A stretch of 64,000 bases of DNA from Parcubacteria group bacterium LiPW_30 (GCA_007375595.1 VMEP01000001.1:89274-153273); one strand, 5' to 3'; counted from the first letter of the stretch, positions 5,494-63,800 are shown. The notes: generated from the sequence alone by a model not told the origin. Program-made: numbers and translations.

Positions 5494-5866
5494 TTCAACT
5501 CAACCTGGTCACGGATAATTTTCTGCTGAAAATTTCCGCAGTCACAGGTTTTTGCTTGCTAGCAAAACCCGCGACCCCGTCTCCTTCGCCTTCGCTCAGT
5601 CCGACCTTGCGAAAGCTTCATTCCTCGCTTTCTCACCCGACTCGGCTATCTTCATAGCCTCCGACCGAAAAGTTTACATTAATTCAACTTTGTCACGGAT
5701 AATTTTCTGCTGAAAATTTCCGCGGTCACAGGTTTTTGCTTGCTAGCAAAACCCGCGACCCCGTCTCCTTCGCCTTCGCTCAGTCCGCCCTTGCGAAAGC
5801 TTCATTCCTCGCTTTCTCACCCGGCTCGGCTATCTTCATAGCCTCCGACCGAAAAGTTTACATTAA
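5494..5866. repeat. tandem direct duplication (2 x ~187 bp) of the rplL 3' end and flank, each unit carrying three hairpins including AATTTTC-TGCT-GAAAATT
   Basis: Units 5494-5682 and 5683-5866 are ~95% identical. Each unit ends with the last codons and stop of rplL (…GTTGAATTAATGTAA on the minus strand). A third partial start at 5867 continues into rplL. Confidence 0.85.
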
Positions 5867-6271
5867 TTCAACTTTTCCTCCAACCTCTTCAATCTTCTTC
5901 TTAAATGCATCTGCTTCATCCTTCTTCATTCCTTCTTTCAAGAGTGATGGAACGTTATCAACTAAGTCCTTGGCTTCTTTAAGTCCAAGACCCAAGACTT
6001 CCTTAACAACCTTCATTACACCAATCTTCTGGTCTCCAGCTGATTTAAGGTGAACAGCGTAAGCTGATTTTTCCTCAGCAGCTTCTCCTGCTCCGGCGCC
6101 TGGGGCTGCCATCGCAACCGCTGCCGCTGACACACCAAATTTCTTTTCAAGAACTTTAACGAGTTCGTGCAATTCAAGAACGCTCATTTTTTCAACTGAA
6201 TCAACGAGTGTCTTAAATTTTGCTGGAACTTCAACTGCTTCTTCTACTGCTACTGTTGTTTCGTCTGACAT
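5858..6271 (-). CDS. rplL: 50S ribosomal protein L7/L12
   Basis: 137 aa; Ala/Glu-rich hinge and conserved C-terminal domain …[22 protein letters not shown]…. Confidence 0.95.
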
Positions 6272-6300
6272 ATTATTATCTCTTTTTAACTGTTAAATTT

Positions 6301-6789
6301 TTAATTCTTTGATTCTGCTATTTGATTAAGTGCAACCACAAAACGCTGTATTGGGGAGTTTATTAAGTTAACAAACTGACCACGCAAAACCTGCATTGAA
6401 GGTATCGTTGCAATTTCTGTCATTGCGACAGCATCAAGAATTTTTCCTTCAAACATACCGCCCATGATATGAATGTGGCCTTTGTACTCTTTCTGGTAAG
6501 CAAAAATAGTACGTGCTGGCTCAATCGGATCTTTACCATAAGCGAGTGCTAACTCACCATCTAGTTGTGGAATCTCGCCCTCAAACTTACCTTCTGTGAT
6601 TGCTCTCTTAACAAGAGTTTTTTTAGCTACCATGTAACCAACACCCTTTGATCGCAAATCACGACGAATCTTAGAAACCTCTGACACAGTTAGACCTTTA
6701 AAGTTAACAAAAACAAGTGACATTGAATCTGCAATGGACTGTTTAAGTTTCTTTAGTATCTCAACTTTTTTTTCTTTACTAATTGCCAT
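6301..6789 (-). CDS. rplJ: 50S ribosomal protein L10
   Basis: 162 aa; immediately upstream of rplL; typical L10 N-terminal sequence. Confidence 0.9.
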   Translation of the reverse strand: MAISKEKKVEILKKLKQSIADSMSLVFVNFKGLTVSEVSKIRRDLRSKGVGYMVAKKTLVKRAITEGKFEGEIPQLDGELALAYGKDPIEPARTIFAYQKEYKGHIHIMGGMFEGKILDAVAMTEIATIPSMQVLRGQFVNLINSPIQRFVVALNQIAESKN

Positions 6790-6995
6790 AATTTTTTGTA
6801 ATTAAAAAACAAAACCGACTCCCCGTGGAGTCGTCCAAGCATTCCGTTGTTAACGAAATGAGTATCGACCTCGACAGACTGCTTTCGCAATTAACGCCCT
6901 ACGGGCTATCTGTTTTCTACGGCTTGTGATGAGATACTACCACACAAACCTAAAAAATTGCAACCGGACACTTAAGTCCAAGGCGGCCAAGTTCC
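6790..6995 (-). promoter_or_regulatory. putative rplJ (L10) leader / autoregulatory structured 5'UTR
   Basis: ~200-nt untranslated gap upstream of rplJ with a GACTCC-ACGG-GGAGTC hairpin adjacent to the start. L10 leaders are established cis-regulators in bacteria. Confidence 0.3.
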
Positions 6996-7505
6996 CTACT
7001 TATTATTAACCTTATTTTTAAGGTGTTCTGCGCGCCAACCAATCATGTTGGAAAGAATTTGAATAAATGTTGAAACTCCGGAAACAGCTAAAATCAAAAT
7101 AAAATACCAAGCAACTGGAGTTAGGTAATAAAAGAAAACAACAAAAGTAGCAAACCAAACACCAACACACCAAGGACATTCAAGAAGCTCAAGACCTGTT
7201 CTACGTGGACCGTCCTCTGGCCTTGTTCTTGCAACAAGCAATTCCCCATCCTGACTAATTAAATTTTCTTCGTCTAAAAACCAGTCACGAAAAAACTTTG
7301 AAACTTTATCGTAAACAAAAAGACGGGTTAAACGGAATGTTGCAAGAATAATTAAAACTAAATCAAAAGTTGTAATACCGGACGGTAACCCTCCGTTAAC
7401 ACGCGTTAATATTAAAGCGGAAAATATTAATATAGCTACAAAAAATAAAATGTAGGCAAGATACCAGAAAACCTGATTATTCCTCTTTTCAATAATTGTT
7501 GTCAT
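6996..7505 (-). CDS. small integral membrane protein (DUF1360-like, CPWC motif)
   Basis: 169 aa; 3-4 TM helices; conserved-looking ECPWCVGVW motif. Confidence 0.4.
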   Translation of the reverse strand: MTTIIEKRNNQVFWYLAYILFFVAILIFSALILTRVNGGLPSGITTFDLVLIILATFRLTRLFVYDKVSKFFRDWFLDEENLISQDGELLVARTRPEDGPRRTGLELLECPWCVGVWFATFVVFFYYLTPVAWYFILILAVSGVSTFIQILSNMIGWRAEHLKNKVNNK

Positions 7506-7530
7506 AAATTTATTTTATAGATTCTACAAT

Positions 7531-62160: not shown

Positions 62161-62326
62161 ATATTACTTTTTCTTACTTGCCCCGTAGGAAGTACTCTTT
62201 CCTATGGGGTCTCCCTTTCTTGTGTACAACATAAGACAATCGTACCATCCTACAGATAGATTGACGAAATAATAATTTAATCGTAGAGTTCGACTAGTTT
62301 AACTCTTTGAGAAAGGTAGGTGTCTC

Positions 62327-63016
62327 GTGCAAAACAACCATCTTACCGCTTGTTTGTTCCTTAAAACGGGGCAACGAAGCGATTGTCACTGTGGTGACGA
62401 GGTATGGCACTACACAAAGCTAACCATGATTTCATTCGGCCTTTTCATTAGCGAATTCGTTGTCGGAATCCTAATCGGAAGCCTGGCTCTCATTTCCGAT
62501 TCGTTCCATGTGCTTGTGGACGGAACAGAAAGCTTCGTTTCCATGATTGTGTCAAAGCGAGCCAGAACAAGTGTGGATGAAAAAAAACTTCGTCGGCGGG
62601 GTGGGTACCTAAGTGCACTCTTGCTTATCGGTGTTGCGCTTTGGATTATCCTCATCGAAGCCCCAGAGCGTATGGCAAACCCGCACGAAATACAAGTCGG
62701 GTACATGATCACACTTGGTTTGGTTGGCCTTTTCGCCAATCTGTTTATGTACTTCATGCACGTCAATACGCACGAGGAACATAAGAACGAAACGCATTGG
62801 TGGCAAGAGCTCCACATCATCGTCGATACTGGCGCAAGCGTGGCTGTTGTCTTCGGTGGTATCGCCATCTGGATAACTGGCGCTGTTGTCGTCGACACCA
62901 TCATCTCGTTCCTTTTGGGTGGACTAATTCTTTTCATCGCCCTGCGACGTCTGTTCCTAAAGCCGTCCGAAGACCACAGCCACTGCGGGCACGATCACCA
63001 CCACCATCACCACTAA
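62327..63016 (+). CDS. cation diffusion facilitator (CDF) family metal transporter, TM domain with His-rich C-terminus (true start may be the internal MISFGL)
   Basis: 6-TM CDF pattern (…SLALISDSFHVLVDG… HxxxD), C-terminal HSHCGHDHHHHHH. Confidence 0.65.
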   Translation: MQNNHLTACLFLKTGQRSDCHCGDEVWHYTKLTMISFGLFISEFVVGILIGSLALISDSFHVLVDGTESFVSMIVSKRARTSVDEKKLRRRGGYLSALLLIGVALWIILIEAPERMANPHEIQVGYMITLGLVGLFANLFMYFMHVNTHEEHKNETHWWQELHIIVDTGASVAVVFGGIAIWITGAVVVDTIISFLLGGLILFIALRRLFLKPSEDHSHCGHDHHHHHH

Positions 63017-63176
63017 CCACAAGTTGTGGTAAAAACAAAAACCCTGCGATAACATCAAGGGGTTTTTATATTTTTAAACAAATGTTTTTAAAAACAAAAC
63101 ATGGAAAAATATTTAGCCCAGGTGTATACTCTTGCCAGCTGAAAAAAGGTTCATTAAACAAAAAAGGAGGCACAAA

Positions 63177-63584
63177 ATGGTAAAGAAGACAAAACATGGA
63201 AGGGTCTCAAACGGAAGTGGCTGGGGAAGATCTTCCTGTGACGAATGTGACGAATCGACGAATGGAAAGGAGGTTATCCTGATATATTATCCATTGGAAG
63301 ATCATGTGGAACGTTACGATGTAACCTGTTTTCTAAAAAAGAACCCACGCCACCGTGTCCGCTACGAGATTGTTATGGCAATCATGGCAGTAAACGGCGT
63401 ACCTGAAGCATTCCAAGGAAACGGCTGCAACCTATGTGAGCAATCAACGGAAGGAGAGGACGTCCTTGTGTCCTATGTCCAAAAAAAGGGAGCTAGTCCT
63501 CGAAAATTCTTTGGCCACCTCTCCTGCTTTATGGGCGAAGACGAAGTGCGAAGTGCGCCTGATGTACATATCAGTACAAGATGA
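63177..63584 (+). CDS. tandem-duplicated CxxC zinc-binding-like small protein (start at MVKK with AAGGAGG SD)
   Basis: Two homologous halves: …GWGRSSCDECDESTNGKEVILIYY…H…CF and …FQGNGCNLCEQSTEGEDVLVSYV…H…CF. Confidence 0.5.
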   Translation: MVKKTKHGRVSNGSGWGRSSCDECDESTNGKEVILIYYPLEDHVERYDVTCFLKKNPRHRVRYEIVMAIMAVNGVPEAFQGNGCNLCEQSTEGEDVLVSYVQKKGASPRKFFGHLSCFMGEDEVRSAPDVHISTR

Positions 63585-63603
63585 AAAGAGGTTCCTTCCA
63601 GAT

Positions 63604-63635
63604 AAAGGCCCTAAACAGGGGCCTTTGTTTTTTGG
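63604..63635 (+). terminator. rho-independent terminator (AAAGGCCCTAAACAGGGGCCTTTGTTTTTT)
   Basis: GC stem plus T-run after the Zn-binding protein gene. Confidence 0.65.
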
Positions 63636-63800
63636 CCACAGATAATTTTCTGCTGAAAATTTCCGCGGTCGTGATTCGACACACAAACAGGGGGATTCGG
63701 TCAAGAACATTTTTACTCGTCGTCACTCATAAAAATTTCTCGACCCTGCTCGTTCGACCATTTCTGCTGAAATGGTACCCGAACTCGCCTTCGAGTCTCC
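63634..63800. repeat. copy of the GATAATTTTCTGCTGAAAATTTCCGCGGTC element followed by a second CCATTTC-TGCT-GAAATGG hairpin
   Basis: Same core as the other copies; the second hairpin keeps the TGCT loop with a different complementary stem. Confidence 0.6.

Follow-up and report, generated by a model that had tools for sequence, protein, structure and literature searches.

Repetitive extragenic palindromic (REP) sequences, with their BIME and REPIN arrangements and RAYT enzymes, are short, structured, multi-copy and intergenic; they occur singly, in tandem or in clusters, are non-autonomous and recognised as single strand, and carry a short conserved motif beside an imperfect, bulged hairpin. 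[quoted passage not shown] Here, we describe an element with these traits, single-strand recognition being our proposal, from a stretch of 64,000 nt (hereafter, the window) of Parcubacteria group bacterium LiPW_30 (GCA_007375595.1, VMEP01000001.1:89274-153273), in which an earlier note had reported a dispersed family of hairpins with a TGCT loop. Each of these hairpins is one helix of a larger, three-helix element that recurs in genomes of the candidate phyla radiation (CPR, or Patescibacteria) and behaves there as a dispersed repeat. CPR genomes measure about 1 Mb and contain very little non-coding DNA.

The element departs from both kinds of repeat in its organisation. REPs, imperfect palindromes of 20-40 nt, are lineage-specific, whereas the core described here is CPR-wide and is accompanied by a second helix, P2, and by closing arms that are specific to each copy. 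Its constant flank is a 3' GUG(AC), which appears as CAC(G) on the 5' side of the plus strand; the 5' GTAG or CGTC tag that characterises REPs (PMC3733652) was not found in our flank alignments. RAYT genes encode Y1 (HUH) enzymes and usually have REPs on their flanks; no RAYT or other Y1 transposase was present among the 25 most frequent Pfam families listed for 150 neighbouring proteins, a result that covers neighbours only. MITEs have conserved terminal inverted repeats around a variable interior, together with short target duplications; here the reverse is the case, and the type A copies introduced below have no such duplications.

Hairpins were enumerated over the window as perfect N7-loop-N7' arrangements with a 4-nt loop and a stem of at least 5 bp. 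Eleven had a TGCT loop, every other tetraloop occurred at most five times, and AGCA-loop hairpins were absent from the plus strand in the same enumeration. Ten of the 11 TGCT hairpins have perfect stems of 7-8 bp, with the loop starting at 5524, 5557, 5708, 5741, 14259, 15467, 54925, 61297, 63651 and 63765. The six sites of the earlier note are therefore real, and their coordinates were correct to within a few bases. The four hairpins that it had missed (5557, 5741, 15467 and 61297) have the stems TTTTGCT/AGCAAAA, AAAACTT/AAGTTTT or AATTTCT/AGAAATT and are closed by CT..AG or TT..AA. The TTC/GAA closing pairs, which had been called invariant, are thus not so: TC..GA is the commonest variant but no rule, and even the closing pairs covary. 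The motif TTCTGCTGAA occurs seven times on the plus strand (starting at 5521, 5705, 12798, 14256, 54922, 63648 and 63762), compared to 0.22 expected, and never on the minus strand. Its occurrence at 12798, which lies within an open reading frame (ORF) of 1134 aa and has a stem of just 4 bp, is best taken as a chance one. A 25-nt box, GGATAATTTTCTGCTGAAAATTTCC, is found at 5513, 5697 and 54914 and, with one mismatch, at 63640, where none would be expected by chance.

All ten hairpins fall into the approximately 6 kb (about 9%) of the window that is intergenic, as had been stated for the known copies, and the named contexts (after rplL, before secE, upstream of the gene for a giant surface protein and beside a tRNA-Leu gene) were recovered. 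The number of independent loci behind the ten hairpins is just six, a tRNA gene sets the orientation at two of them, and orientation is random in other genomes; the single-strand bias seen in the window is therefore weaker evidence than it appears.

The relevant strand is the minus strand, on which the loop reads AGCA, opposite to the strand considered by the earlier note. Read in this way, each TGCT hairpin is helix P3 of a core of about 55-60 nt. In sense orientation (5' to 3'), P2 consists of a 3-bp stem, G(N)A, a 4-bp stem, a GRCG tetraloop, the returning strand of the 4-bp stem, GA and the returning strand of the 3-bp stem, such that G(N)A and GA form a tandem G.A between the two stems. 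Among 58 cleanly parsed copies, 39 have GACG as this tetraloop and 8 have GGCG. P2 is connected by 2-8 nt to P3, which is built of 3 bp, a 7-bp A/U-rich stem with the C-AGCA-G loop, a bulged A on the returning strand and the completion of the 3 bp; GUG follows directly 3' of P3. In the flank alignment of the plus strand of the window, the same layout appears as CAC, G, 3 nt, a bulged T, the 7-bp hairpin, 3 nt complementary to the first three, and a G+C-rich tail. Within this tail, the copies 14259, 15467 and 54925 have a second small hairpin. These three copies are enclosed by an inverted repeat of 16-24 bp, different in each, and are predicted to fold into a three-way junction with z of -5 to -7. 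The remaining window copies lie within longer, highly structured G+C-rich stretches after rplL (two tandem units of 184 nt), tRNA-His and tRNA-Leu. The earlier view of the hairpin as a structural unit accordingly stands in that structure is selected, and falls short in that the unit is larger, the hairpin being P3 of a three-helix element in which the second helix and the closing stem covary too. The box CTCGCGTCGCCACGCT, which had been noticed in its copy C and again at 15486-15500, is real and corresponds to helix P2 of the complete copy at 15453-15505.

The distribution of the element was assessed with a degenerate pattern based on P3, WWWWTTCAGCAGAAWWWWANNYGTG, which was scanned over one genome per prokaryotic species. 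Among the matches listed, this gave more than 118 loci (individual loci carry L numbers below), nearly all in metagenome-assembled genomes (MAGs) titled Patescibacteria or CPR. The record titles include Taylor-, Nomura-, Kaiser-, Adler-, Yonath-, Zambryski-, Wildermuth-, Nealson- and Magasanikbacteria, Paceibacterota and Saccharibacteria; the hits L053, L102 and L106 look like chance matches. A covariance model built from an alignment of 46 cores detected 135 copies in 685 kb of pattern-hit loci. Thirty-five of these lack the search pattern and have other, compensated P3 stems; their loop is mostly AGCA, with AGAA, ACCA, AGUA and UGCA being rare. Pattern scan and model together yielded more than 170 copies, almost all in Patescibacteria/CPR genomes, and copy density is extrapolated to about one per 5-10 kb. 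An energy scan anchored on GTGAC was too insensitive for A/U-rich stems. The pattern had no match in 2.9 million viral contigs, and a phage origin was rejected on this ground. At the gathering threshold, Rfam 15 matched only 23S rRNA and tRNAs in the window, with no match to the element; permissive scans (E<=1 on eight loci, E<=0.1 on window positions 1-7100) returned nothing on any element, and no description of it was found in the searchable literature. The element is thus absent from Rfam 15, and the family to which it belongs spans Patescibacteria. Copies may also be densely clustered: on a 2.4-kb contig (L085, 1-2378), seven model hits lie on both sides of a tRNA-Val gene.

Pairing within the core is strongly maintained. 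In the parsed alignment underlying the model (59 columns, 46 cores), which was used in place of a MAFFT alignment of whole type A elements that mis-registers P2, 99.6% of the pair cells are paired and two-sided changes occur at 14 of 17 pairs. The covariation score of these 46 cores is 0.699, whereas shuffles reach 0.204 and slid registers do not exceed 0.126. Across 134 distinct model hits, 98.4% of the cells are paired and double changes are seen at all 17 pairs. The four W positions in each P3 arm, at which the pattern demanded just A or T, are complementary in 486 of 496 cells, and the three outer P3 pairs comprise 318 Watson-Crick, 34 G.U and 5 A.C combinations in 372 cells. The window copy at tRNA-His, which was held out, scored 66.4 bits with a compensated P3. 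Arms hence differ from copy to copy yet remain complementary, and relatives keep the pairing, in line with the selection on stem pairing that the earlier note had proposed. Run over the window with filters off, the model found the known sites only and nothing in coding sequence; it identified four full cores (those beginning at 14245, 15453, 54911 and 61283; Table 1), plus the tandem variants and partial copies.

The mismatches are unevenly distributed between the strands. Closing helices contain 16 G.U versus 4 A.C and 13 G.A versus 3 C.U oppositions. What is an A.C mismatch in the plus strand becomes a G.U pair in the minus strand, which for this reason folds better, with predicted energies of -40.8 versus -29.7 kcal/mol for 54895..54982 and of -40.6 versus -33.0 and -37.8 versus -36.2 kcal/mol for two other window copies. 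The excess of G.U over A.C in both P3 and the closing helices means that what matters is the fold of a single strand, namely the one that reads AGCA, minus in the window. This polarity rules out a symmetric duplex site and is compatible with RNA or single-stranded DNA.

A palindromic site bound by a protein on double-stranded DNA, which the earlier note had offered as an option, could take the form of an operator for a transcription factor encoded by an adjacent winged helix-turn-helix (wHTH) gene or for a CodY-like protein. The CodY box is AATTTTCWGAAAATT, and AATTTTC..GAAAATT does resemble its half-sites; moreover, wHTH genes adjoin copies in the window and at L099, L110, L126 and L135. For such an operator, however, the spacer measures 4 nt instead of 1 nt and lacks symmetry, the half-sites vary, and the arms change their sequence with compensation. 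The bulge and the freely covarying neighbour P2 would be inexplicable for a duplex, and the mismatches differ between the strands. Both wHTH genes are conserved in synteny, and their flanks lack the element in several genomes. The duplex operator reading is contradicted by this analysis, and we give it next to no credence.

Neither of the two wHTH proteins of the window qualified as a partner. The 203-aa protein (p203; 4764-5375), which had been suggested for a pulldown, showed no specific link to the element: it is a syntenic neighbour of rplL in CPR, and the gap between the two genes is variably occupied and in either orientation: the window has sense copies in tandem there, L142 has a type A copy in antisense, and L139 and L140 have none. 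In the window, two copies flank the gene for the 280-aa DeoR-like protein (p280; 14463-15305), which has copies at L110, L126 and L135/136 as well. The synteny of this gene is conserved, however (ftsK / p280 / giant PG_binding_1 protein), and copies are missing there from three of the four unbiased genomes. As a separate observation, p203, which is encoded after rplJ-rplL and before an MscS-like gene, has more than 1100 homologues at about 50% identity; p203 and p280 (both on the minus strand) gave no significant Pfam match, and their synteny is fixed in CPR.

Based on 125 pattern matches, the one core occurs in two architectures. In type A, it is enclosed by a closing helix of 13-52 bp (median 23), which is 95.6% Watson-Crick and copy-specific. 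Certain type A sub-families have conserved internal loops further along this rod (for example, CGUCGA versus GAGWAAG, or AUAGUC versus GAGCUAU) in unrelated gene contexts and different genomes. Type B is linked to tRNA or transfer-messenger RNA (tmRNA) genes; its joint GGGGUCGC pairs with the 3' GUGAC(C), and the element opens with GGAAUCG-AAAG or a relative of it. In a swapped sub-class, the AGCA hairpin is found at the P2 position, with GA-GCGACGGC-GA on the tip of P3. This exchange of modules between positions P2 and P3 speaks for a joint requirement for the two loops.

The link of type B to tRNA genes is tight. Of the 39 type B copies, 24 were found in the 600 nt downstream of a same-strand tRNA gene, at a distance of 60-110 nt, whereas about 3.5% would be expected there by chance, and seven further copies had been misclassified as type A. 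The genes preceding copies cover ten tRNA identities (Val, Leu, Ser, Gly, Trp, Glu, Lys, Arg, Tyr and Asp) and tmRNA. Following GUGAC, the tRNA is repeated from about position 56 in the T-loop to 1-2 nt beyond its 3' end. This direct repeat has a length of 19-21 nt, at times of 29-47 nt including the terminator; it starts at about C56 in at least 13 of the 24 tRNA-linked copies and at the tmRNA gene, and the window has it at 61224-61240. The opening arm (GGAAUCG and variants) is the reverse complement of tRNA positions 56-62. As the repeat extends far past what pairing requires, it is read as the footprint of an insertion or duplication at the T-loop and not as a structural need. The gap between tRNA-Val and tRNA-Arg illustrates the two states: it is empty and 13 nt long at L125, and at L036 and L039 the same gap is filled with about 150 nt, made up of element and repeat. 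Type B copies also accrete in tandem (L049 and L019); in L019, two units of 97% identity, each composed of terminator, opening arm, core and GUGACU, are separated by about 800 nt. In a second tRNA-proximal layout, the final tRNA bases and the trailer pair with an inverted copy across a conserved GAAUACNUGGA loop, before the core.

In its position directly after the gene and in the T-loop-to-3'-end direct repeat that bounds it, type B resembles integrative elements that target tRNA and tmRNA genes. Unlike in these, which encode a tyrosine integrase and are specific for one tRNA, its inserts are only about 100-190 nt long, non-coding and without integrase, concern at least ten tRNA species and are not found in viral contigs. 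The group I intron in tRNAs of Patescibacteria resides in the anticodon loop at position 35/36, not in the T-loop, and no group II introns have been reported in Patescibacteria (PMC13011429); on this account, a route via reverse transcriptase is unlikely.

The footprint at the T-loop raises the question of whether the element acts at the level of DNA only, as a folded single-stranded substrate of a recombinase or transposase (as in attC, CTX-phage attP/Xer or IS200/IS605-like systems) without any RNA role. T-loop-to-3'-end repeats are the classic footprint of tRNA/tmRNA integration, and the closing helix of type B re-creates a segment of the tRNA gene beside the junction as a duplex. The one-strand polarity would also be accommodated, G.T and G.A being tolerated as the most stable DNA mismatches, and the bulged base together with the conserved loop resembles hairpins bound by such enzymes. 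Xer-like integrases adjoin two copies. Indeed, attC and CTX-phage attP-XerCD sites share with the element recognition by structure, extrahelical bases, single-strand polarity and covarying helices. In attC, however, conservation resides in the base of the stem (the R''/R' boxes) and the tip varies, opposite to what we find here, and attC sites are arranged in cassette arrays beside intI, whereas the genes between copies of the element are housekeeping genes. A matching repeat would be required for each of the ten tRNA identities, type A has no repeats, and viral contigs have no copies. The GC skew of the element-sense strand is positive at 58 and negative at 51 loci and unrelated to orientation; a replication-strand bias is thus absent, unlike in single-strand elements of the IS200/IS605 type. 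No HUH/Y1 transposase features in the list of the neighbours' 25 most frequent Pfam families, and an integrase is encoded in 2 of 150 cases. A purely DNA-level role therefore appears unlikely to us. A derivation from IS200/IS605 (PATE) was rejected as a candidate, since this orientation bias is absent (58 vs 51) and TnpA/TnpB are not among the neighbour families listed.

In contrast to a cis-regulator of particular genes, the element has the dynamics of a dispersed, recombining repeat. Whole modules are gained, lost and swapped between strains, and copies sit in intergenic regions of any kind and in either orientation: with respect to the nearest ORFs, 26 are same/same, 22 opposite/opposite, 21 divergent and 18 convergent. 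The 150 neighbouring proteins fall into 150 different Pfam families of housekeeping genes without enrichment, for which reason a partner protein encoded in cis was rejected; no transposase or reverse transcriptase is among the 25 most frequent families listed, and Phage_integrase occurs in 2 of the 150. The window NusG protein has matches on groundwater metagenome contigs. Strains with identical NusG have, upstream of secE, either one element, a truncated plus a second one, or a '14259-type' element instead, and several strain contigs end inside the element at this site. Contigs matching the 14259 and 15467 loci are only 1.2 kb long and break at the repeats. Upstream of the NADAR gene, strains differ by the insertion or deletion of whole modules, as well as by replacement of P3 with a form that has a UCUG loop.

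The positions relative to genes and transcription signals also bear on the idea that the copies are hairpins at RNA 3' ends or insulators, which terminate or stabilise neighbouring mRNAs and tRNAs. Several copies do have a terminator on one side and the next promoter-like site on the other, or are placed amid convergent genes (L034); the long closing helices, being palindromes, would fold on either strand, and promoter-like sites point outward (15 of 74) more often than inward (5 of 74). Yet divergent gaps are occupied as often as convergent ones (21 vs 18), the examples examined have no U-tract after the closing helix, canonical terminators already precede many copies, and a conserved polar core would be unnecessary for this purpose. 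We consider such a role very unlikely. Two narrower candidates were rejected as well: an intrinsic terminator, since P3 is A/U-rich and followed by GUG and its orientation is random with respect to genes, and a terminator or promoter role in general, since neither a 3'-end bias nor a preponderance of inward promoters was seen.

Taken together, we put at about one in two the probability that the element is a non-autonomous REP/MITE-like repeat which is recognised as a folded single strand, probably RNA, by a factor conserved in CPR. Such a repeat would spread or re-assort via recombination between copies and insertion into permissive intergenic DNA, and a preferred insertion site would be that part of tRNA and tmRNA genes which runs from T-loop to 3' end. 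The folded strand of fixed polarity would most probably be RNA that arises by read-through transcription, single-stranded DNA being possible too. The factor may make its contacts with the loop C-AGCA-G, with the bulged A and with the tandem G.A plus GRCG loop; contacts of a conserved CPR factor with these near-invariant features would explain why the core is constant while the helices drift. The role of the bound element could lie in its own propagation, in RNA processing or stability, or in nucleoid organisation.

A number of observations speak against this interpretation. No mobilising enzyme was found, be it in cis or among recurrent neighbours. In type A copies, target duplications and conserved terminal repeats are both lacking, and the closing arms are unique, without a second match in a local search that left viral contigs out; these features do not account for how new copies would arise. 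Sigma70-like promoters point inward in only 2 of 37 type A copies, and as inward promoters are rare, sense-strand RNA is unproven for copies that are antisense to both neighbours. The conservation of a sequence of about 25 nt across the superphylum, unlike that of the lineage-specific REPs and MITEs and much deeper than in any known selfish repeat, would fit a host-beneficial RNA better. In addition, the taxon labels are record titles of MAGs, the counts of the genome scan are lower bounds based on the matches listed, the P2 rows of the 46-core alignment were picked by a parser that demanded complementarity, and the alignment of the 134 model hits is fitted to the model. The failure to find a second local match for the closing arms was also the ground on which we rejected them as spacer- or guide-like copies of nearby sequence.

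A different balance between host and repeat is conceivable. The element may be a small, hitherto unrecognised structured RNA of the whole superphylum, either the ligand of a CPR-specific protein or a self-cleaving or self-inserting RNA, which spreads as a module, also into the T-loop of tRNA and tmRNA genes, and is kept at an extrapolated 50-100 copies or so for the benefit of the cell; we put this forward tentatively, as a possible but less probable account. It shares some ground with the notion that the copies are true non-coding RNA genes or domains, namely a component of a ribonucleoprotein or a new small self-cleaving ribozyme, present as maintained paralogues, whose stems would have diverged through compensatory changes, and not mobile. 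The deep conservation of loops and bulges while every helix covaries freely, the tandem G.A, the tetraloops and the tolerance of G.U and G.A on one strand are all in keeping with this, as are the internal loops of the closing helix that are conserved in sub-families with unrelated gene contexts. The permuted or swapped module order is reminiscent of the hammerhead and twister types, with which the element also has in common a three-helix junction, conserved loops, many copies, a free context and a variable closing helix; small ribozymes, too, are multi-copy and independent of orientation and gene, and hammerhead-like hits occur in the same genomes. Its junction strands are ACUU, (N)GAG and GUG, though, and not the CUGANGA or GAA of self-cleaving ribozymes; a known ribozyme core is absent, and neither the Rfam ribozyme models nor Rfam as a whole gave a match. 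Upstream promoters (2 of 37) and terminators are inconsistent, strain-level swapping and truncated relics resemble the dynamics of repeats, and the 19-47 nt repeat of the tRNA 3' end far exceeds the need for pairing. Immobile non-coding RNA genes hence seem rather doubtful, although together with a purely DNA-level substrate they form the chief alternative to the repeat reading. TIGR-Tas arrays and box C/D guides, considered for the tandem G.A and their CPR link, were rejected since the copies are dispersed and C/D boxes were not seen in the alignments; no Nop-domain family is among the neighbour families listed. Separately, the Kaiserbacteria chromosome OY969413.1 (L049), which also carries the element, has two type III hammerhead matches 766 nt apart (6331-6385 and 7097-7151) with 45-46 bits versus a gathering threshold of 48.5.

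In returning to a REP/MITE-like repeat with a conserved CPR factor, we note that the element is repeat-like in its lack of gene association, its random orientation and its turnover, yet is conserved like a housekeeping RNA and is no ordinary selfish repeat; this combination implies a conserved, unnamed partner. In lineages titled Saccharibacteria, Magasanikbacteria and several Parcubacteria, it appears to fill a sizeable share of the longer intergenic gaps, and its loops hardly differ in sequence from one lineage to the next. The searchable motif and the covariance model can serve the annotation of CPR genomes, in which the element explains recurrent assembly breaks in metagenome bins and marks the 3' flanks of tRNA genes as dynamic. 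It also opens a testable way into CPR-specific nucleic-acid biology, for example in cultivable Saccharibacteria. The copies in the window are compiled in Table 1.

Table 1 Copies of the element in the 64-kb window, with covariance model matches and predicted structural features
Feature and context	Position	Strand	Core or model match	Parts and remarks
Tandem unit 1, 184 nt, after rplL	5490..5673	-	5543-5605, 43.9 bits; 5510-5542, 34.1 bits	Two P3-type hairpins, AATTTTC/TGCT/GAAAATT in box 5513-5537 and TTTTGCT/TGCT/AGCAAAA at 5545-5571; variant P2 (GA-GCGAAGGC-GA); GAGGAATGAA-loop hairpin
Tandem unit 2, 95% identical to unit 1	5674..5857	-	5694-5759, 41.2 bits	P3 box 5697-5721; second hairpin 5729-5755
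Type A, upstream of the giant surface-protein gene	14227..14318	-	Core 14245-14297, 68.4 bits	Closing helix 14227-14245 with 14300-14318; P3 AAAATTC/AGCA/GAATTTT; -37.8 kcal/mol, z -7.2; TTGACC-17-TAATAT downstream on the minus strand
Type A, divergent ftsK/p280 gap	15435..15526	-	Core 15453-15505, 63.1 bits	P3 AAAACTT/AGCA/AAGTTTT; -40.6 kcal/mol, z -7.3; contains the box common to copy C
Type A, between SIMPL-gene terminator and secE promoter-like site (TTGACC-17-TAGAGT)	54895..54982	-	Core 54911-54963, 67.2 bits	
Composite type B, downstream of tRNA-His (61518-61590)	61224..61419	-	Core 61283-61342, 66.4 bits (outside the training set)	Opens with CGGGATTTG-AAAG (T-loop and T-stem of the tRNA, reverse complement); P3 AATTTCT/AGCA/AGAAATT, then an additional hairpin, then GTGAC; ends with CAAA-CCGATAGGCACCC, the tRNA-His 3'-end repeat (61224-61240)
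Swapped type B, downstream of tRNA-Leu (63855-63939)	63688..63808	-	63702-63767, 16.2 bits	CCATTTC/TGCT/GAAATGG (63770 in the earlier note) in the P2 position; P3 tip GA-GUGACGAC-GA; ends (about 63688-63700) with a degenerate tRNA-Leu repeat covering T-loop and T-stem
Partial copy, adjoining the bidirectional terminator of the convergent zinc-protein gene	63637..63680	-	41.9 bits	Full P3 (box 63640-63664); P2 remnant

Further conserved or repeated sequences were seen at the giant-gene locus of other genomes. The conserved box ATCGGCCCTGTCGACAAGGCAGATAT belongs to a long leader of the giant PG_binding_1 surface-protein gene at L131, L133 and L135, in three unrelated CPR genomes; the window has no match to it with up to three mismatches. 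L133 additionally contains other intergenic repeats at 1473-2000 and 2832-3931, namely GAGGTCCAACCT... and runs of AATTACGAATTAATAATTAAGAATT, which suggests that lineage-specific repeat families coexist with the conserved element.

Several other features of the window were recorded. The 23S rRNA gene (273-3552, minus strand) measures 3280 nt compared to 2925 nt of the model, with about 350 nt of insertions, and as no 16S gene is present in the window, the rRNA genes are apparently unlinked. Immediately downstream of the gene for 23S rRNA, a partial match to a group I intron (1-180, minus strand; 26.6 bits, E 0.0012) is cut by the end of the window. Upstream of rplJ (6800-6940, minus strand), a match to L10_leader reached 31.9 bits, below the gathering threshold of 44, and is probably a genuine, divergent CPR leader. 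A perfect 33-nt tandem duplication at 36099-36164 lies in the ORF 35141-36331 (minus strand), where it would give an in-frame repeat of 11 residues. Finally, two minus-strand paralogues at 25428-26447 and 30501-31406, about 5 kb apart, are 75-79% identical over approximately 600 nt.

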